A stretch of DNA of 64,000 nt from a virus. Each line of letters begins with the position of its first letter. Position 1 is the stretch's first letter. Where the stretch lies: the IMG/VR virus record IMGVR_UViG_3300042922_001062, positions 15,478 to 79,477 of that record; one strand, 5' to 3'. Below, one piece after another: positions 14,877 through 50,605 of the stretch. The notes beneath the pieces are model-generated. The model did no database searches. It was not told the DNA's origin and saw only the letters and a list, made by a program, of their open reading frames with translations. The position numbers were made by a program, and so were the translations under genes.

Positions 14877-15976
14877 ATGAACCGGATGTATTCGGTCCTC
14901 ACCGTCAAGGCGGTGGAGGATGACCAGCGCATTATCCGCGGCACCGCCACCACGCCGTCGCCGGACCGCATGGGCGATATCGTCGAGCCGCTCGGCGTGA
15001 CCTTCCAGAACCCGCTGGTGCTGCTTCACCAGCACGACAGCGACCGGCCGGTCGGCACGGTCACCTTCGACAGGCCGACGGCGAAGGGCATCACCTTCGA
15101 GGCGAGGCTCCCGACGATCGAAGAGCCCGGGCCGCTGAAAGACCGCGTCGACACCGCCTGGGGCGAGATCAAGGCCGGCTTGGTCCGTGCCGTCTCCATC
15201 GGTTTCCGAGCGCTCGAATACTCGTGGATGGATGATGGCGGCATCCGCTTCATCTCCACCGAGGTGCTCGAGCTCTCTCTCGTCTCCGTTCCGGCCAACG
15301 CCGAGGCGGTGATCTCCACCATCAAGTCGATCGACGCCCCTGTGCTCGCCGCGACCGGCAAGGGGCCGAAGGCGTCCGATCGGCCTGCACCTCCCGGCGT
15401 CTCGGGGAAATCCGTCAAACCAGTGAACCTGAGGCCGAAGGAGGCCAGGACCATGAAGACCATCGCTGAGCAGATTGCTGCTCTCGAAGCGTCGCGGCAG
15501 ACCAAGGCCGCGCGCATGGCTGAAGTCATGCAGAAGAGCATCGACGAGGGCCGCTCGACCGACGCCGCGGAGCAGGAGGAGTTCGACACCCTTGAGCAGG
15601 AAGTGTCCGCGCTCGACGGCGACCTCAAGCGCCTCCGCGCGCTGGAGAAGGCGCAGGCCGCCACCGGGAAGCCGGTGATCGCCAATCAGATCCGGACGGC
15701 CGAGCAGGGCACCACCGCGCGTTCGGGTGTCACCCTGAAGTCCGCGGCGCCGGATAAGGGCATCCGCTTCGCGCGGTACGCCAAGTGCCTCGCCATCTCC
15801 ACCAAGACCCATCAGTCCGTGGTGTCGGTGGCCGAGGCCATGTACGGCGGCAAGGATGACGACTTCATCGACATCGTGAAGGCCGCTGTCTCGGCGATGA
15901 CCACCGGCAACACCGATGCGCTCATCGGCAACGAGGGCGGTTTCGCCGACTTCGTGGAATTCCTCCGCCCGATGAC
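14877..15976 (+). CDS. Prohead protease-major capsid fusion, 5' part (interrupted by the satellite; reads on to a stop at 16004)
   Basis: HK97-type protease motifs DRMGDIV, LLHQHD, AVSIGF, ELSLVSVPAN, then coiled-coil delta domain and capsid start. Confidence 0.92.
15959..15976 (+). repeat. attL core (18-bp direct repeat)
   Basis: ATTCCTCCGCCCGATGAC, identical to 31721-31738. Confidence 0.95.
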
Positions 15977-16152: not shown

Positions 16153-16425
16153 GTGAACGCGACAAAAAAAGCCGAAGGTGAAATCCTCTACGGGGTAAAG
16201 GCCATCGCGAAGTTTCTCGGGGTGACGCGCCGGCAAGCGCAACACCTCGTCGACTCCAAGGCGGTGCCAAGCTTCAAGATGGGGCGGACGGTGTGCGCCC
16301 GGCCCGAGCGGGTGCGAAGCGTGATTGAAGCAGCGGAGAACGGCAGGGCCGCGCCAAGCGATCAGGTGGACCAACCGCAGGACGGCGGGCAGCTTAACCT
16401 TCTCGGCGGCGGCGAACATGGCTAG
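16153..16425 (+). CDS. AlpA/excisionase-like HTH protein
   Basis: [19 protein letters not shown]...[13 protein letters not shown]; paralogue of 29218-29613. Confidence 0.75.
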
Positions 16426-20466: not shown

Positions 20467-20757
20467 ATGCCAAACTCAGAGATGCTCACAACTTACTCCC
20501 ATGGTACCGTTTCAGTGACCAAGGGATCAAAGACCGTCCGGGGCAAAGGCGTTTTCTGGCTGGACGTGCGGTCGTGCGACAGCCTCGAAGCCGGGGACCG
20601 CTGCCTCACCACCATCGCCTCAGTAGACGCGACCGATTTCACCACATTGGAGCTTGCTGTGCCTTGGTGCGGCGAGACAGCGGAGGACGTCCCTTACGTG
20701 ATCCGCTTCGACGCTCCGCAGCGATTTCCCGGCTACAGGGGGCGCGCCGATGGCTGA
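20467..20757 (+). CDS. Stand-alone tail-fibre N-terminal (anchor) domain paralogue
   Basis: YSHGTVSV...TIAS...LELAVP....DVPYVIRFDAPQRF matches the first ~80 aa of both fibres. Confidence 0.75.
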   Translation: MPNSEMLTTYSHGTVSVTKGSKTVRGKGVFWLDVRSCDSLEAGDRCLTTIASVDATDFTTLELAVPWCGETAEDVPYVIRFDAPQRFPGYRGRADG

Positions 20758-21847
20758 CCTCTACAGCACCGGCACCGTCTCGGTGCCCAGCGGTGGCACG
20801 ACTGTTACGCTGACCGGGGGGCTCTTTAGCGGTGTTCTCGCCGGCGATACGATCGAGATCGGCGAGCTTCCCGCGAAGACGATCGCATCGCCGACCGACG
20901 CCAGTCATCTGGAACTGGCCGTCGCGGTGACGTCCGATCAGGTGGATGTCCCCTATGTGCTTCGCTTCGACGCCCCGTCGCGCTTCACCTCCGGCTATCT
21001 CGCGGAGCAGGTGCGGGCGCTGATCGCGCAGGCGGGCATCATCAAGGCCGCCCGGCCAAACTACGAGGTGCAGAGCCTCGGCGGCAACGCACCGCCTGGC
21101 TCTCCTGTGACGGGAGACATGTACGTCGTCGGCACCGCGCCGACCGGCGCATGGGCTGGGCGGGCGAATAATTTGGCGCAGTGGACCGGCTCGGCGTGGC
21201 TGTTCACAGCGCCGGATCGAGGAACGACGGTCGTTAGCGTGGCGACGGGTATTGTGTCGATCTGGGGCGGCGCGGCGTGGCTACCTTACATAGGCCCTGG
21301 CGCTTTCATGCAGACGCTGATGCCGGCGGCGACGCAGGCCGCGGCGCAGACTACGCTTGGGCTCGATAGGGCCGCCCGCACGCTCTGGACGGCGGATATC
21401 TCCACTCCTGTCGCGGCGATTAACGTCCCGCTCGCGGCGGCGTATCGGGCGTTCAAGCTGACCATCGGCTGCCTCACCGGCTCGGATGCGACAGCCAACT
21501 TGATACACCGCATCAGCCGCGACGGGTCCACGGTCGACACGGGTGCATCGGACTATCAGGGGTCTGCGCTTGTTGTCGTGGGTAGCGGAGTTTCCGCGGC
21601 GGCGCGGACGGCGTCGGATGCGTTTCTCGGCACGTTGACGGCCACGATGGTAGCAATGGACATCACGCCTGGCGCGGCCGGTCTGCCGTACATGTGCACT
21701 TCCCAGTCTATGGAGTTCGCCTCTGGATATCGTCTTGATTTCCGCGGTACCCGTGCCGCGAATGTCGGGCGCGCTCAGTTCATCCAGATCTACCCGTCAG
21801 CCGGCAATCTGACTGCTGGGACGCTGACGCTGGCCGGGTATCCGTGA
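20750..21847 (+). CDS. Satellite tail fibre / receptor-binding protein (DUF2793-like module, distinct C-terminus)
   Basis: First 177 aa are 153/177 identical to helper fibre 49412-50605; the C-termini are unrelated. Confidence 0.9.
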   Translation: MADLYSTGTVSVPSGGTTVTLTGGLFSGVLAGDTIEIGELPAKTIASPTDASHLELAVAVTSDQVDVPYVLRFDAPSRFTSGYLAEQVRALIAQAGIIKAARPNYEVQSLGGNAPPGSPVTGDMYVVGTAPTGAWAGRANNLAQWTGSAWLFTAPDRGTTVVSVATGIVSIWGGAAWLPYIGPGAFMQTLMPAATQAAAQTTLGLDRAARTLWTADISTPVAAINVPLAAAYRAFKLTIGCLTGSDATANLIHRISRDGSTVDTGASDYQGSALVVVGSGVSAAARTASDAFLGTLTATMVAMDITPGAAGLPYMCTSQSMEFASGYRLDFRGTRAANVGRAQFIQIYPSAGNLTAGTLTLAGYP

Positions 21848-21892
21848 CGCCCGCCGCCGGGCTTCGAGGTGGTGGCTCGGCGGTCAGATATG

Positions 21893-21918
21893 AAAAAGGC
21901 CGCCCCGAAGGGCGGCCT
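21893..21918 (-). terminator. Terminator for the minus-strand moron (possibly bidirectional)
   Basis: AAAA-AGGCCGCCC-CGAA-GGGCGGCCT. Confidence 0.75.
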
Positions 21919-21932
21919 CTCTCACCGTCCGG

Positions 21933-27991: not shown

Positions 27992-28840
27992 CTACTCGGT
28001 GAGCAGCCCCGCCAAACGCCCCTTTGCGATAAGATAGCTAACAAAGGAAGCGCACGCTCCCAGCATGAACAACGCGTCAGCCTCGTCGACGTTCGCGGCG
28101 TCTTGGTCGAGCAGCGAGTGCCGTATGCCTTTCTCGTCGCTGGCATAGCCATAAAGGGCCGAGAATCCTTTCTTCATTGCCTCGTGGATGGCGCCAGCCT
28201 TTTCCAGTTTGACCAGAGCGGGGCCAAGTGTAGTCGATCCCGGCGCTAGCTGTACTGCGACCGCTTCAACAGCATGGATAGCTTCGCGCACGCAGTCCGG
28301 ATACTTTCCTGCAGTGGCAGCTTCTATCGAGGACCTCAAATGGGCATAGGCGCCGGTGATGCCGACAGCGCGTGCGGACTTGAGTGCTGCTTCGAGAGCT
28401 GCAGCCTCCGTCGGATCGGTTATGGGGGCAATAGTATCCCCGTCGACCACGCGATAAGCTGCGTGACAATTAACTAAAACGTCGGCAATATGCTTGCGGA
28501 ATGCGGCTGGCGTATAATTGAATCTTAGTATCCATTCAATAAATCCAAAAACTTCTACGTAGTCGCCGTTCTCTATAATTGTCTGAATTCGTCGTATTTG
28601 TTGAAAGTGCAAAGAAATGTATTCACTAGAGAATCTATTTTGATGAAATACAAACTCCGCCTTGAGAATTGCATTCCATGGCTCGGCAACGGTGTGGTCG
28701 CCGCGCCTTGGAAGAACATGCATGTCGAACACGAAGAACAATTGAGCCCTCAGTTGAGGGGAAAGTTTTTTCAAGGCGAGTTGCGTTGGTAACGGTGCGC
28801 GACCTTCGGCTTGCTCAAAGGAGACTAATTTCCTGTCCAT
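27992..28840 (-). CDS. AbiJ-NTD4-like / HEPN-like abortive-infection candidate
   Basis: SFEQAEG..PLP.QL..LRAQL N-terminus; C-terminal EAIHAVEA, LYGYASDEKGIRHS. Confidence 0.7.
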   Translation of the reverse strand: MDRKLVSFEQAEGRAPLPTQLALKKLSPQLRAQLFFVFDMHVLPRRGDHTVAEPWNAILKAEFVFHQNRFSSEYISLHFQQIRRIQTIIENGDYVEVFGFIEWILRFNYTPAAFRKHIADVLVNCHAAYRVVDGDTIAPITDPTEAAALEAALKSARAVGITGAYAHLRSSIEAATAGKYPDCVREAIHAVEAVAVQLAPGSTTLGPALVKLEKAGAIHEAMKKGFSALYGYASDEKGIRHSLLDQDAANVDEADALFMLGACASFVSYLIAKGRLAGLLTE

Positions 28841-28911
28841 GATCCGCCCCACTTCCAATGCGTGGCAACCTGCCATTGGAGTACCGGCAGCGCAATGAGC
28901 GCCTTCGCGAT

Positions 28912-29064
28912 CCCCTCTTGGCGGAGGGGGCGAAGCAGCGCATAAATGGGATTGGGCTTGAACACCCGGACGAAAGTTATAGCGCGACGCCCTTGGCGGG
29001 GCTTGGCGCCGAAGCACAGCGCCCTTGGCGGGGCGGTGTGCAAGGTCGCACCTTGGCGGGTGCG
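28912..29064 (+). repeat. Four hairpins with an identical TTGGCG loop
   Basis: CCCCTC/GAGGGG (28912-29), GCCC/GGGC (28989-29002), CGCCC/GGGCG (29020-35), CGCACC/GGTGCG (29047-64). Confidence 0.8.
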
Positions 29065-29080
29065 CCGGACCTGGCCATCA

Positions 29081-29167
29081 TGGCCGGGAGCGGTGCGCTA
29101 TGTCCAGAGGGTACGCCCTTAAAAGCGCGTCGGCCTGTAACTTTCGCAGGTGTTCAACTCCCGGCTG
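29081..29167 (+). ncRNA. C4/CI-type antisense RNA with upstream a1b1 and downstream a2b2 targets
   Basis: Closing stem GCCGGGAG/CTCCCGGC; TAACTTTCG and GGTGTTCAA are complementary to CGAAAGTTA/TTGAACACC (28958-79) and TTGAACA/CGAAAGT (29191-210). Confidence 0.75.
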
Positions 29168-29217
29168 CCGGTCTGCTACCGGCGACGGCCTTGAACAGCC
29201 GAACGAAAGTACATCCC

Positions 29218-29613
29218 ATGAACATGAACGCCAGCCGGCCGAGACCGGCCAGCATCCCACCGACCGAGGTCGCGCGGAAGCTTCTCGACATCCGTCACGA
29301 CCTCCAGCGCGAGCTTCAGCGCGTGGACACCCTGCTTGCAATGCTCGGCGCCCCGGTGGCGGCGGCAGGGTGTCAGCCGGACACTCCGGCGGGACGTGGC
29401 CCCAATTTCGGGGAGACGTCGGCGAGTGATCTCCTCTATGGAGCGCCAGCCATTGCGGGCTATCTTGGCCTTACCGAGAAGCAGGCCCGGCACCGTATCG
29501 AGGCGGGGAATATTCCGGCCTTCAAGATCGGCGGCACGGTGTGCGCCCGCCAATCCTCCCTGTCCACATGGCTCGCGAACCTCGAAGCCGCAGCCGCGCA
29601 TGCGGAGGACTGA
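29218..29613 (+). CDS. Excisionase/AlpA-like HTH protein with an N-terminal coiled coil
   Basis: LLYGAPAIAGYLGLTEKQARHRIEAGNIPAFKIGGTVCAR. Confidence 0.75.
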   Translation: MNMNASRPRPASIPPTEVARKLLDIRHDLQRELQRVDTLLAMLGAPVAAAGCQPDTPAGRGPNFGETSASDLLYGAPAIAGYLGLTEKQARHRIEAGNIPAFKIGGTVCARQSSLSTWLANLEAAAAHAED

Positions 29614-29615
29614 TC

Positions 29616-29867
29616 ATGCTGGTGGATCATGATTTCGGCGGACTGCTTCCGCCGGCAAGCGTCGATCGCATCGCCACGCGCCGCGCGCTCGCGTCGATCA
29701 TCGAGCGGGCGCTCGCGCTGCGGGATGCCCTCGATGATGACGCCGATCTTGAGGAGTGCGGCGACGCCGAGCCCAGCCTCGGTGCATCGGAGGCAGGCGC
29801 GCACTTCTGGTCTCAGATCGGATGGGCGAGGGGAGGCGACGGCGACCTTGAATGGGGGGGGTCATGA
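29616..29867 (+). CDS. Small acidic hypothetical protein
   Basis: GGAGG RBS; D.DLEE..D.EPSLG and DGDLE motifs. Confidence 0.55.
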   Translation: MLVDHDFGGLLPPASVDRIATRRALASIIERALALRDALDDDADLEECGDAEPSLGASEAGAHFWSQIGWARGGDGDLEWGGS

Positions 29868-30283: not shown

Positions 30284-30414
30284 CTATCCGCCCGGCGCCG
30301 CCTCGCGCTGGCGCCGGGCATTTCGATACGACATGAGAATTTCATCAAGGCATTGAGCATGCTGGGCTTTCCCGGGCTTCCTAAAGCTGCATGCGACAAC
30401 CGAGGCAAATCACC

Positions 30415-31713
30415 ATGGCGAGTGTTCGCAAGCGCAAGTGGATCCACAACGGCAAAGAGGGTGAAGCGTGGGTCGTCAACTATACCGACCAGGGGGGCAA
30501 GCGCCGGCAGAAGGCTTTCGACCGGAAGAAGGAAGCCGACGCTTATCGGACGGAGATCGAAGCGGAGATCAAGCAGGGAGTGCATACTGCTCTCAACGAG
30601 AGCGTGAAGGTCTCTGAGGCCGTGCGGGCGTTCTGCGTCGACTGCCAGAAGCGCGTGACGGCAGGAACGATGACGAATGGAGGATTCAAGAGCTACCGAT
30701 GGAAGCTCGAAAAGTACGCAGTGCAGAAGTTCGGCACCCGCAAGGTTTCCACGATCACGGCTGAGGAGGTGCAAGATTGGGTGGACGAGTTGCTGCGGAC
30801 GCTGTCGCCGACCTCTGTCACGGGCATCTACGTGGCCTTCGGCGTACTGCTATCGTTCGCGGTCCGGCGCCGTTGGGTGCGTAGGAACATCCTGCGGGAC
30901 ATGCCGTGCAAGCTACCGGCAAGGCCAAAGCGCAAGGCGGTGCCGACCAAGGCAGATATTTTGGCCCTGATGCACGCCGCATCTACGATGGAGCGCGGCG
31001 AGAACCTCCTGACGTTCGTCAATCGGCTGGTCGTTGTGGCCTGCGGCGTGTTCGGCGGCTTCCGCCCTGGAGAAACGTTCGGCCTTCAATGGGAGGACGT
31101 CGACTGGCAGAAGGGCGTCATCCACGTCCGCCACAGCCACACTAAAATGGACGGGCTGAAGGCGCCCAAGACCGAGGCGGGATATCGCGATGTTCCAATA
31201 ACCGCCCCCATTGATCGGGCCTTGCGGCAGTGCGCGCGCTACTGGACGATCCGCCGGCTTGCTGAAGGGCCGGGTTTCGGCAGCGATCACCCGAAGGCGA
31301 TCTTCTCGCGGATCGCGCGCATGTGGGAGGGCGAGTTTATCGCGGTGCGGCCGGAGGACCTGAAGGGGTTCGTAATCCTGACCAAGGTGGGCAAGCCGAT
31401 GACGGCGACGGCGAGCGCAACGACGTTCTGGTCCCGGCTGATGAAGGCGGCGGGCCTGCAAACGGAGGACGGGAAGAACCGCTTCACGCCGCACGCGCTG
31501 CGCCACGCCGCGGCGAGCCTGCTTATTGAGGCGGGTCTCGACGACATGAACCTGAAGCGCTTCATCGGGCACGCCTCGATCCAGACGACGAAGGATATCT
31601 ACGGGCACCTTTTCCCGACAGACGAACGGATGGTTGCAACAACGGCAGCGATTGCGCGCGATCTGGACGCAACAACAGAGCGACAAACATCTGTAAGGCA
31701 CCCGCTGCAATAG
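30415..31713 (+). CDS. int: Tyrosine recombinase (integrase)
   Basis: GFRPGE (R), PKTEAG (K), HALRH, IGHAS, IYGH (Y); N-terminal arm-binding-like domain; stop codon 7 bp before attR. Confidence 0.95.
   Translation: MASVRKRKWIHNGKEGEAWVVNYTDQGGKRRQKAFDRKKEADAYRTEIEAEIKQGVHTALNESVKVSEAVRAFCVDCQKRVTAGTMTNGGFKSYRWKLEKYAVQKFGTRKVSTITAEEVQDWVDELLRTLSPTSVTGIYVAFGVLLSFAVRRRWVRRNILRDMPCKLPARPKRKAVPTKADILALMHAASTMERGENLLTFVNRLVVVACGVFGGFRPGETFGLQWEDVDWQKGVIHVRHSHTKMDGLKAPKTEAGYRDVPITAPIDRALRQCARYWTIRRLAEGPGFGSDHPKAIFSRIARMWEGEFIAVRPEDLKGFVILTKVGKPMTATASATTFWSRLMKAAGLQTEDGKNRFTPHALRHAAASLLIEAGLDDMNLKRFIGHASIQTTKDIYGHLFPTDERMVATTAAIARDLDATTERQTSVRHPLQ
31669..31686 (+). repeat. Putative integrase arm-type sites (right arm, inside the int 3' end)
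   Basis: GCAACAA-CAGA-GCGACAA, 11-bp period; a further GCAACAA at 31636. Confidence 0.6.
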
Positions 31714-31720
31714 GAAAAAT

Positions 31721-31738
31721 ATTCCTCCGCCCGATGAC
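31721..31738 (+). repeat. attR core (18-bp direct repeat)
   Basis: ATTCCTCCGCCCGATGAC. Confidence 0.95.
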
Positions 31739-32612
31739 CATCGTCGGCCGCTTCGGCACCGGCAACATCCCGGCGCTGACCCGCATCCCCTTCCGGGTGC
31801 CGCTGATCTCGGAGACCTCCGAGAGCGACGCCCAGTGGGTCGGTGAGGGCAAGGGCAAGCCGCTGACCAAGTTCGGTGTCGGTCGCACCGAGCTCACTCC
31901 CCTGAAGATCGCCACCATCGCTGTCCAGACGATGGAACTCATCCGCGACAGCTCGCCGTCTTCGGACGTGCTGGTGCGGAACTCGCTGGCGAAGGCCATC
32001 GCGAAGCGCACCGACCTCTCGTTCATCGATCCGTCCTCGGCGGCTTCCGCCGGCGTCCGCCCGGGTTCGGTTCTGAATGGTGTCGCCGCCACGGCGAACA
32101 GCACGGCCACGGGCGCCGACGGTGTCCGCGAGGATGTCCAGGCGATCATTGGCGCCTTCGTGGCGGCGAACAACCCGCTGCAATCCGGCGTCTGGGTGAT
32201 GTCGGCGACCTACGCGCTTCGGCTCATGATGATGCTGAACCCGCTGGGCCAGCGCGAATTCCCCGGCATCACGATGCAGGGCGGCACCTTCTTCGAGCTG
32301 CCGGTCATCGTGTCGAACTACCTCGGCGACTACGTAGCCCTGGTCAATGCCGAGGACATCTGGTTCGCCGATGAAGGCGGGGTCGACGTCGCCATGTCGA
32401 CTGAAGCGTCGCTGGAGATGGTGGACAACCCGACGCAGGACAGCGGCGCCGAAACTCCGGTCGATTCCGAGATGGTGTCGATGTTCCAGACCAACTCGGT
32501 CGCCTTCCGCGCCGAGCGCACGCTGAACTGGGCGCGCCGCCGCTCCAGCGCGGTAGCGTGGATGGACAACATCACCTGGAGTGATCCGGCCGAAGAGAGC
32601 GCCGGCGTCTGA
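31734..32612 (+). CDS. Major capsid protein, 3' part (HK97 fold)
   Basis: AQWVGEGKGKP, LTPLKIA.I, SMFQTNSVAFRAER; in frame with the 5' part across the att core. Confidence 0.93.
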   Translation: MTIVGRFGTGNIPALTRIPFRVPLISETSESDAQWVGEGKGKPLTKFGVGRTELTPLKIATIAVQTMELIRDSSPSSDVLVRNSLAKAIAKRTDLSFIDPSSAASAGVRPGSVLNGVAATANSTATGADGVREDVQAIIGAFVAANNPLQSGVWVMSATYALRLMMMLNPLGQREFPGITMQGGTFFELPVIVSNYLGDYVALVNAEDIWFADEGGVDVAMSTEASLEMVDNPTQDSGAETPVDSEMVSMFQTNSVAFRAERTLNWARRRSSAVAWMDNITWSDPAEESAGV

Positions 32613-49411: not shown

Positions 49412-50605
49412 ATGCCCGAATTCTACAGCACTGGCACCGTTTCGGTGCCCGCCGGCAGCACGACCGTGACCCTGGCCGATGGTCTCTGGAGCGGCGTCCT
49501 TGCGGGTGACACCATCGAAATCGGTGATCTCCCGGGGAAGACAATCGCATCGCCGACGGATGCCACTCATCTGGAGCTCGCCGTGCCGGTGACCGCCGGC
49601 CAGGTGAATGTTCCCTATGTGCTCCGCTTCGACGCGCCTTCCCGTTTCACCTCCGGCTATCTCGCGGAGCAGGTGCGGGCGCTGATCGCCCAGGCCGGCA
49701 TCATCAAGGCCGCTCGGCCGAATTATGAGGTGCAGAGCCTCGGCAGCAACGCCCCTCCCGGCGCGCCCGTCACGGGCGACTTGTATGTCGTGGGCACCGC
49801 GCCGACGGGCATCTGGGCGGGCCGGGCGAATAATCTGGCACAGTGGACCGGGTCGGCGTGGCTGTTCACCGCGGCTGACCATGGTACGTCCGTGGTCAGC
49901 GTCGCGACGGGCATCGTGTCGATTTGGAACGGCACGGCGTGGACCACGTTCCAGACTGCGCTTGGCTTTGCCCCGGTGAACAAGGCCGGCGATACCATGA
50001 GCGGTCGGCTGATTGCTGACGGTGGCGTACAGGGCAATAACGGCATCGCCACTGCCACCTTGAATCTCGGTGAACTCGAGGTTCAAGGCAACGGCATCGG
50101 CGCCGCGGCCATGGCGTTCCACCGCCCCGGCGGGTTCGCGGCCTACTTCGGACTTGATACCGACAATGCGTGGAAGGTCGGCGGCGGCTCGTATGGAGCC
50201 GTGGCCCACAAGATCTACCACGCGGCCAGCATCGTCGGCACCGTCTCGCAGTCCGGCGGCACGCCGACCGGCGCGATTGTCGAGCGCGGCAGCAACGCGA
50301 GCGGCGAATTCGTCCGCTTCGCAGATGGGACCCAAATATGTTGGCGCACGACTTCCGGCACAACGCTGTCGACGACCACCGTAGCGAACGGGTTGTACCG
50401 AACCGATCCCTTCACCGTTACCTTCCCGGCGTCGTTTGCGGGGGTACCCTTTGGCATCATCAACATTGGTCCGGGTAACGGCTGGATGGGCACCCTGTCA
50501 GGGGTAAACACCACGCAGTGGACCTATCAGCTGCTCGCGGTTCAGGCGATCACGTCTGGCGCGACGAACAATATGCAATTCTTGGCTGTCGGCAGGTGGT
50601 TCTGA
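49412..50605 (+). CDS. Helper tail fibre (DUF2793-like module, gp53-like C-terminus)
   Basis: PVNKAGDTMSG, FHRPG.FAAYFGLD, GAIVERGSNASGEFVRFADGTQICW. Confidence 0.88.
   Translation: MPEFYSTGTVSVPAGSTTVTLADGLWSGVLAGDTIEIGDLPGKTIASPTDATHLELAVPVTAGQVNVPYVLRFDAPSRFTSGYLAEQVRALIAQAGIIKAARPNYEVQSLGSNAPPGAPVTGDLYVVGTAPTGIWAGRANNLAQWTGSAWLFTAADHGTSVVSVATGIVSIWNGTAWTTFQTALGFAPVNKAGDTMSGRLIADGGVQGNNGIATATLNLGELEVQGNGIGAAAMAFHRPGGFAAYFGLDTDNAWKVGGGSYGAVAHKIYHAASIVGTVSQSGGTPTGAIVERGSNASGEFVRFADGTQICWRTTSGTTLSTTTVANGLYRTDPFTVTFPASFAGVPFGIINIGPGNGWMGTLSGVNTTQWTYQLLAVQAITSGATNNMQFLAVGRWF

Follow-up and report, generated by a model that had tools for sequence, protein, structure and literature searches.

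A conserved array of TTGSCG-loop hairpins in the C4-like leader of a helper-embedded phage satellite

Antisense-RNA immunity cassettes are known from phages P1 and P7 (immI, arranged a1b1-c4-a2b2-icd/ant), from P4 (seqA-CI-seqC) and from Gifsy-1 (IsrK/STnc1160) (PMC4825925; PMC10111431). In all of them a decoy or target site precedes a processed antisense RNA, which is followed by another target covering the first gene's start; the target words are displayed in hairpin loops, and the cassettes belong to prophages or satellites. The immunity exerted by P1 c4, P4 CI and IsrK is known; how it is lifted at the right time is poorly understood, above all in satellites embedded in a helper, which are known as helper-embedded phage-inducible chromosomal islands (PICIs) from Enterobacteria (Tommasini, Mageeney and Williams 2023, PMC10111431). 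Here we analysed a 64,000-nt stretch of virus DNA from a soil metagenome (IMG/VR record IMGVR_UViG_3300042922_001062, positions 15,478 to 79,477; hereafter the window), in which a satellite inserted in a helper gene has a leader with the same order of parts as these cassettes. This 377-nt intergenic leader, lying between a minus-strand defence-like block and a plus-strand integrase operon, also carries an array of hairpins that differ in their stems and share one loop. The hairpins and a neighbouring copy of the loop hexamer are as follows, in window coordinates.

28912-28929, plus strand: hairpin 1, CCCCTC-TTGGCG-GAGGGG, with a 6-bp stem and an outer stem extended at 28899-28941
28989-29002, plus strand: hairpin 2, GCCC-TTGGCG-GGGC, with a 4-bp stem
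29003-29008, plus strand: a TTGGCG without a stem, directly after hairpin 2
29020-29035, plus strand: hairpin 3, CGCCC-TTGGCG-GGGCG, with a 5-bp stem
29047-29064, plus strand: hairpin 4, CGCACC-TTGGCG-GGTGCG, with a 6-bp stem, belonging to the proximal class

The sequence agreed exactly with an initial annotation made from the letters of the window, which had listed four perfect hairpins with differing stems and a TTGGCG loop together with a fifth, unpaired TTGGCG at 29003. Because hairpins 2 and 3 share part of their flanks, within a 22-nt direct repeat of 86% identity, the independent stem sequences number three rather than four. Perfect flanking stems of at least 4 bp were found at 5 of the 204 TTGSCG hexamers (S, G or C) on both strands of the whole 79,477-base record, and four of these five make up the array; likewise, of nine copies of the 8-mer CTTGGCGG in the window, four belong to the array. 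These counts exclude chance as the origin of the array, which is also the sole cluster in the record of at least three hairpins with the same loop and different stems. Folding with ViennaRNA predicted each hairpin to be stable (-8 to -27 kcal/mol) and reduced the TTGGCG loop to a UGGC tetraloop closed by a U-G pair. Towards the left satellite end, a lone GCGC-TTGCCG-GCGC hairpin is present at about 16236 of the minus strand.

Other identities for the array were considered and rejected. The four hexamers sit in different frames of a 58-amino-acid open reading frame (ORF) at 28946-29122, which rules out a coding repeat, and the vicinity of the helper terminase gene (TerL) holds no copy that would point to a cosB- or pac-like terminase site. 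Arm sites of the integrase would leave the hairpin symmetry unexplained, and the array lies 2.7 kb from the right attachment repeat. Nor can every loop be the -35 element of its own promoter, since hairpins 2-4 are not followed by a -10 element.

Homologous leaders were gathered through integrase and capsid searches and then with two conserved words of the leader core, giving 41 non-redundant leaders from Rhizobiales, Sphingomonas, metagenomes and IMG/VR contigs; among the sources are Microvirga, Faunimonas, Brucella pituitosa, Ochrobactrum, and metagenomes of soil and other origin. The initial annotation had held that absence of the motif from related elements would speak against its reading; the outcome was the opposite, the motif being present in the 41 homologous leaders, and every sufficiently long leader carried two to four hairpins of the array type, always on the integrase strand. 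Within leader windows of 325 nt, perfect stems of at least 4 bp flanked 89 of 122 plus-strand TTGSCG hexamers, compared with 5 of 1268 in the remaining 898 kb of the same loci, which served as background. The 98 hairpins represented 60 distinct stems, whose closing pair covaried, being C-G in 78, T-A in 11, G-C in 5 and A-T in 4.

Covariation was evaluated on an alignment of 87 distinct hairpins, in which the three loop-adjacent pairs had been used in selecting the set. Standard pairs filled 81.9% of cells, against 48.1% after shuffling and 35-54% when the partners were slid, and double-sided changes occupied 222 cells against 81 in the shuffles. The covariation score was 0.817 compared with 0.200 for shuffled alignments, and none of 500 shuffles reached it. 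The fourth and fifth pairs from the loop, which lay outside the selection, were paired in 94% and 78% of hairpins, and at these two pairs G-T or T-G combinations outnumbered A-C or C-A by 16 to 4, which favours the plus strand. The hairpins thus keep their pairs through double-sided changes, above both shuffled and slid controls, as a structured RNA does, and the earlier claim of selection on structure around a fixed loop is borne out by the 41 leaders and their covariation. On this comparison of sequences, it is very strongly supported that the array hairpins are a real conserved-loop element.

Two main loop types were found, TTGGCG in the window and 25 other leaders and TTGCCG in the Microvirga, Brucella, Faunimonas and related leaders. 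The loop was near-invariant across bacterial orders at five of its six positions, with T at position 1 in all 87 aligned hairpins and either G or C at position 4. The departures from these types were concerted within loci. All three hairpins of L416 carry TTGCAG, and in its ortholog L415 hairpins 1 and 3 carry TTGCCG while the middle one is degenerate (TGCCAG); the two leaders are 88% identical, and no compensating change was found anywhere in the leader. Two distal hairpins carry CTGGCA in L397 and L399, and CTGCAA in L404, where the proximal hairpin keeps TTGGCG, so that loop positions 1 and 6 switch jointly from U..G to C..A. This joint change is consistent with the predicted wobble pair closing the tetraloop and does not distinguish between the strands. 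Parallel loop changes in one element without a partner in cis therefore imply a reader acting in trans, and to this extent the idea of a trans factor reading the loops, put forward in the initial annotation, was upheld. Satellites of the window and of Microvirga occupy the same helper capsid gene (capsids 86-88% identical) and differ in their loops, G-type and C-type, respectively.

The 88% identity between L415 (6328-6712) and L416 (5921-6306) was confined to the leader cassette, the flanking genes being barely alike, a pattern that suggests transfer of the leader from one element to another as a module. Searches of wider scope were also carried out. A blastn comparison with phage records gave no relatives, scans of viral and genome collections for a triple CTTGGCGG pattern returned chance and tandem-repeat matches with no related array among the matches listed, and among 400 genomes sampled from the order of Microvirga lupini the integrase was present in the starting genome only. 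No description of the array was found in Rfam or in the literature searched; the TTGSCG-loop hairpin motif is widespread and apparently undescribed.

The array had been placed by the initial annotation in a satellite leader next to a C4-type control, and the comparison confirmed both the leader, which belongs to the excision and integration operon of the satellite, and a C4-type antisense switch within it. The parts of this switch in the window are listed below.

28954-28988, plus strand: element A (a1b1/seqA-like), in which a GGGC-TTGAAC-ACCC hairpin shows word X, followed by word Y (GAAAGTTA); X and Y are complementary to B
29070-29088, plus strand: hairpin P0, CCTGGCC-ATCAT-GGCCGGG
29082-29166, plus strand: three-way-junction core RNA (P1, P2 and P3), C4/sRNA-Xcc1-like, assigned from a weak Rfam match, RNAalifold and the fold
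about 29127-29160, plus strand: element B, within the core, the complement of A and C
29188-29220, plus strand: element C (a2b2/seqC-like), a second X and Y that extend over the ribosome-binding site to the ATG with which the first ORF begins

Across the loci, the leader runs from a hairpin and a predicted promoter through A, the TTGSCG hairpins, often an A/U-rich linker, P0, the three-way junction and a further hairpin to C. Array and C4-like core share one orientation throughout, and the hairpins between A and P0 sort into classes of fixed position; the proximal class, to which hairpin 4 belongs, lies at -46 to -51 from a TGTCCAG anchor in nearly all G-type leaders, and the proximal hairpin ends a few nt 5' of P0 (5 in the window). 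Each loop type is paired with its own version of the downstream core. Word X is displayed at A in the loop of a GGGY-X-ACCC hairpin and again in a loop at C, the complement of Y lies in the P3 loop, and the core carries the complement of X as well. Both words vary by locus, with their complementarity to B and their repetition in C kept. RNAalifold recovered P1 and P3 with compensatory changes in 21 G-type cores, and the fold of the whole leader had a z-score of -5.8. Predicted duplexes of B with cognate and non-cognate A or C (RNAduplex) differed little, -44 vs -39 kcal/mol, and were not used as evidence.

The 3' arm of P0 (GGCCGGG) is at the same time the 5' strand of P1, the regions concerned being 29070-29090 and 29157-29166. 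Because this segment is common to both, P0 and P1 are mutually exclusive, and their predicted competition suggests a conformational switch. In L313 and L395 the shared segment starts with T, and both of its partners have changed to match. Pairing of the array loops with the 5' arm of P0 was considered and rejected, since L313 keeps TTGGCG loops despite a different P0 arm; for want of conservation, pairing of the loops with the core or with leader sequence farther downstream was rejected too.

Rfam 15 gave no match at the gathering threshold in the window or in 13 related loci, the models for C4 (RF01695), isrK (RF01394) and STAXI included. The best match below threshold was sRNA-Xcc1 (RF02221; 22.3 of 53 bits, E 0.27), which fell on the core and not on the hairpins; this family adjoins C4 and isrK in Xylella (PMC12189769). 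Neither the first 15.6 kb of the helper nor the rest of the record yielded a C4 or isrK RNA. A weak isrK match at 21847-21922 (RF01394; 16.8 bits, E 0.01), just 3' of the satellite tail-fibre gene, is unrelated to the array and probably marks a terminator-like structure.

Alignment with other loci gave the position of a predicted, sigma-70-like leader promoter, in which the loop of hairpin 1 takes the place of the -35 element (TTGGCG, 17 nt, CATAAA at 28941-28946, ending 7 nt before A). The Microvirga and L407-type loci have the same arrangement of loop on -35, and the copy in L416 has switched its loop along with the others. Elsewhere, a CCCC-GNRA-GGGG or TTGGCG hairpin lies 3-10 nt upstream of a separate -35.

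Our preferred reading, to which we assign a probability of roughly one half, is that the hairpins of the plus-strand leader RNA are bound by a sequence-specific trans factor that tunes the folding or processing of the immunity RNA. It is built on the conservation of the hairpins, their fixed strand and positions, their covariation, the concerted switching of loops and the A/B/C architecture, from which we infer that the array works as RNA and from the plus strand, that its reader is a protein and that the array is linked to the choice between P0 and P1. On this reading the stems would need only to pair, and the loop, folded as a UGSC tetraloop on a U-G pair, would be the part recognised by a sequence-specific trans-acting factor, probably a protein. 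Bound to the array near P0, the factor would bias P0 against P1 and so shift the folding, processing or stability of the precursor. The outcome would set the amount of active immunity RNA, or of an A-bearing decoy, and this level would in turn decide the translation of the operon that encodes the HTH_17 protein, a small acidic ORF and the integrase. A more specific version, which we put forward tentatively, makes the hairpins the sensor of a protein-responsive RNA immunity switch, in which a loop-specific protein of the satellite, helper or host would pick P0 or P1 and with it the maturation of the C4-like RNA, coupling excision to the state of the helper. The loop specificities GCG, CCG, CAG and CTGGCA would then be lineage-specific.

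Several observations weigh against the preferred reading. No conserved candidate gene for the reader was found beside the leader, where only the acidic ORF and the integrase recur, neither of them an obvious RNA binder. The P0/P1 competition shows little covariation, the shared segment being nearly invariant, and the excess of G-U pairs stems partly from orthologous copies, so that it is modest. Hairpin 1 overlaps the predicted -35 or is located 5' of it, and so do its counterparts in at least 15 loci. Because it is at or upstream of its own promoter, hairpin 1 would be present in RNA solely through read-through from upstream, or else the reader would act on DNA too; entry of transcripts from the co-oriented helper late operon into the satellite is conceivable from the gene order. 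In addition, a scan for consensus promoters did not pick up the one predicted on the plus strand and instead called a promoter-like site on the minus strand, TGGACA-18-CATGAT from 29106 to 29077, inside the conserved core.

The position of hairpin 1 would be explained by a function at the DNA level, in which the repeats would form single-stranded DNA hairpins or cruciforms, or would be operators, for example for the HTH_17/AlpA-like protein, that shut the leader promoter. Its loop is the predicted -35 in the window and in the Microvirga and L407-type loci, and switches with the downstream loops in L416; every loop variant starts with TTG or CTG, as -35 hexamers do, and spacings are often near multiples of 10-11 bp. 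A duplex-binding protein, however, gives no reason for flanks that vary and yet stay complementary, and duplex DNA is unlikely to extrude hairpins that have GC-rich stems of 4-6 bp and 6-nt loops. That the array is strictly co-oriented and lies, within a structured RNA, between A and the core is easier to reconcile with RNA, as is the prevalence of G-T over A-C, and no rolling-circle Rep or relaxase was found among the satellite genes scanned, which were the part of the ORFs taken through Pfam. We regard a DNA-level function as unlikely, and a little less likely again the proposal of the initial annotation, boxB/nut-like sites for a helper-encoded antiterminator through which helper induction would override the C4-type block. 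That proposal would be one form of our preferred reading, with little support specific to it. It stands in so far as a fixed loop on free stems follows the logic of boxB and a trans reader is implied; moreover, helper transcripts can enter the satellite, which runs in the direction of the late gene that it interrupts, and some promoter-proximal copies (L407, L408 and L415) look like a strong hairpin with a T-containing tract after it. It falls short in that a terminator scan found no intrinsic terminator after the array, and in that the stem-TTGGCG-stem pattern which the annotation had suggested seeking in the helper was absent from the helper part of the record, unlike a nut system serving the helper's own operons, with no TTGGCG hairpin outside the array anywhere in the 79 kb of helper and satellite. 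The ORFs scanned included no arginine-rich or ANTAR candidate, N-like proteins lacking a reliable profile. boxB is a GNRA-like pentaloop that occurs once per operon and is paired with boxA, but the loops here have six nt or form a tetraloop on a U-G pair, and satellites of one helper capsid gene use differing loops.

The promoter called in the core raises the case that the minus strand is the functional one: a core antisense promoter (TGGACA, 18 nt, CATAAT-like) would fire leftwards, placing hairpins with CGCCAA loops at the 5' end of an antisense RNA that carries a B-like anti-A, or in the 5' untranslated region of leftward cargo. Its hexamers are the reverse complements of the invariant TGTCCA and of the P0 loop, which is always A/T-rich, the arrangement is kept across G-type leaders with CTTGTA-17-CATAGT as its C-type equivalent, and the next leftward gene of the window, AbiJ-like, is on the minus strand. 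The site may thus be an antisense promoter, and a transcript from there would open with the hairpin array. The plus-strand G-T pairs that outnumber A-C by 16 to 4 would nevertheless be mismatches on the minus strand, the upstream genes of L298, L309 and L319 are on the plus strand and hence form no leftward operon, and a plus-strand RNA explains the invariant residues equally well; we consider a minus-strand function improbable. Slightly less credence still goes to the loops as docking sites for an antisense RNA encoded elsewhere, in the manner of the a1 and a2 loops of c4 and IsrK. Word X of the same leader is displayed in hairpin loops in just this way in A and C, and CGCCA occurs at one fixed core position in nine G-type leaders. 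A complement of at least 5 nt to the loop is nevertheless present in the core of 15 of the 41 leaders and not in that of the window, the three C-to-A loop changes of L416 have no change of partner in the leader, and the rest of the record gave no C4 or isrK match. All TTGSCG hairpins are upstream of the core and none lies between the core and the ATG, where c4/IsrK docking loops have a copy over the ribosome-binding site, and it is words X and Y, unlike the TTGSCG loops, that have the complementarity of docking loops. Very improbable, and the least likely in our view, is a passive role in which the hairpins merely space A from the core or shield a 5' leader fragment from nucleases, the loop being kept for thermodynamics or processing. 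The hairpins are indeed stable, and behind the array there is often a single-stranded linker rich in A and U (CCGAAA/U-type), such as RNase E sites have, but near-invariance at five of six loop positions and concerted switches within a locus are unexpected of spacers.

The leader belongs to a satellite whose ends and main genes are as follows.

15959-15976, plus strand: left attachment repeat of 18 bp (ATTCCTCCGCCCGATGAC), the left satellite end, inside the helper protease-capsid gene
27992-28840, minus strand: AbiJ-like gene of the defence-like block, the next leftward gene from the leader
29218-29613, plus strand: first ORF of the operon, 131 amino acids, with a C-terminal HTH_17 domain (excisionase/AlpA-like; Pfam E 0.0019, below the curated cut-off)
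29616-29867, plus strand: small acidic ORF with D-x-D-L-E and EPSLG motifs
30391-31713, plus strand: tyrosine integrase at the right satellite end (Pfam Phage_integrase, 8.6e-22)
31721-31738, plus strand: right attachment repeat of 18 bp, within which the helper capsid half (31734-32612) begins

The helper terminase is followed by a prohead protease ORF of 375 amino acids, about 15.7 kb upstream of a capsid ORF of 292 amino acids that comes directly after the satellite integrase. L260 and L265, relatives that lack the insertion, have one protease-capsid ORF of 663-667 amino acids behind the terminase; it matches both halves, which add up to its length. Because the repeats flank the element and these relatives have one ORF, a satellite of 15,762 bp, the distance between the two copies of the 18-bp direct repeat, is inserted in the helper protease-capsid gene. 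Direct repeats, a late gene that is intact in relatives and an integrase at one end are features of helper-embedded satellites, and the element is co-oriented with the late gene it interrupts. The overlap of the right repeat with the start of the capsid half leaves both halves of the split helper gene as open reading frames. As cargo, the satellite carries its own capsid homologue, a tail fibre, a Rha/ANT gene and defence genes, the minus-strand block also holding an RNase_T-family exonuclease and a DUF4238 gene. DUF2793 fibre proteins are encoded both in the satellite (20750-21847) and in the helper (49412-50605), with the domain at residues 106-177 in each. A tRNA gene outside the window, near the left end of the record (G000:C1:1127-1200, L424), may be the helper prophage's own integration site.

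In the operon behind the leader, the HTH_17 ORF had no relatives when used as a protein query; small ORFs just 5' of the integrase in L296, L298 and L316 have the same C-terminal motif. A 30-nt stretch of this ORF (29520-29549) is repeated with 87% identity at 16272-16301, which suggests a second AlpA/excisionase-like gene fragment near the left satellite end. A homologue of the acidic ORF comes directly after the leader in 29 of the 41 loci. Pfam assigned no family to the homologues from L240, L319 and other loci, and the acidic ORF fell in no named ESM Atlas cluster. Downstream of the integrase in L294, L296, L298, L312, L316 and L319, the late gene (TerL, portal, ClpP-capsid fusion or DUF6260) begins partway through its profile, and the whole integrase group appears, as judged from these gene fragments, to target prophage late genes. 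No attachment repeats were found for the apparently minimal elements L298, L309, L312 and L319.

Alphaproteobacterial integrases beside truncated late genes for TerL, portal and protease-capsid proteins extend the idea of helper-embedded satellites beyond Enterobacteria. Sharply defined and widely conserved, the array presents itself as the obvious candidate input of the immunity switch. If the sensor version of our reading is true, it would introduce a new class of motif for RNA-protein recognition and add a new layer to antisense-RNA immunity, and the loop variants would be a natural specificity series provided that the reader is a protein. The 41 leaders could serve as the basis of a covariance model for annotation.

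Among systems with repeated or protein-bound hairpins, lambda N/boxB shares with the array a conserved loop on a short, variable stem in a phage leader, and boxB is read by a protein; here, in contrast, there are two to four tandem copies, none in the helper, and no N-like protein was seen among the ORFs scanned. In sponge RNAs of the CsrB and RsmZ type, too, several hairpins of a single RNA differ in stem and share a loop motif, but their loops contain GGA, which binds CsrA or RsmA, and the loops of the array do not. The dual-hexaloop motif bound by the ANTAR proteins EutV, NasR and AmiR also consists of tandem short hairpins with free stems and six-nt loops, and its protein shifts an alternative RNA fold (PMC8934654). 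Its loops require an A in position 1 together with a G in position 4 (PMC8934654), whereas position 1 here is U (or C) and position 4 is G in the G-type alone; ANTAR targets were rejected as an identity, the aligned hairpins lacking this A1/G4 combination. In the ANTAR motif the second hairpin overlaps an intrinsic terminator, and the scan showed no terminator-like site behind the array. A search for ANTAR proteins gave no match in the record and likewise none in control genomes. STAXI (Weinberg et al. 2010, PMC2864571) is a small unit repeated two to three times near integrase genes and occasionally near c4 RNAs, for which RNA and single-stranded DNA were left undecided; unlike the array, it is a pseudoknot with UUCG loops from other taxa (PMC2864571), and no Rfam STAXI match was obtained here.

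Compared with the c4, CI and IsrK cassettes, the leader controls genes for excision and integration, has an additional TTGSCG array that is not complementary to the co-encoded antisense RNA, and matches no Rfam model for C4, isrK or other c4-type RNAs. The text on enterobacterial helper-embedded PICIs (PMC10111431) mentions neither Alphaproteobacteria nor hairpins and describes no hairpin array. The satellite nevertheless resembles those elements in being co-oriented within a helper late gene with an integrase and an AlpA-type gene at one end, and they too carry C4/isrK-type immunity RNAs (PMC10111431); it differs from them in its alphaproteobacterial integrase group and in the genes targeted, which encode protease-capsid, TerL, portal and ClpP-capsid proteins.

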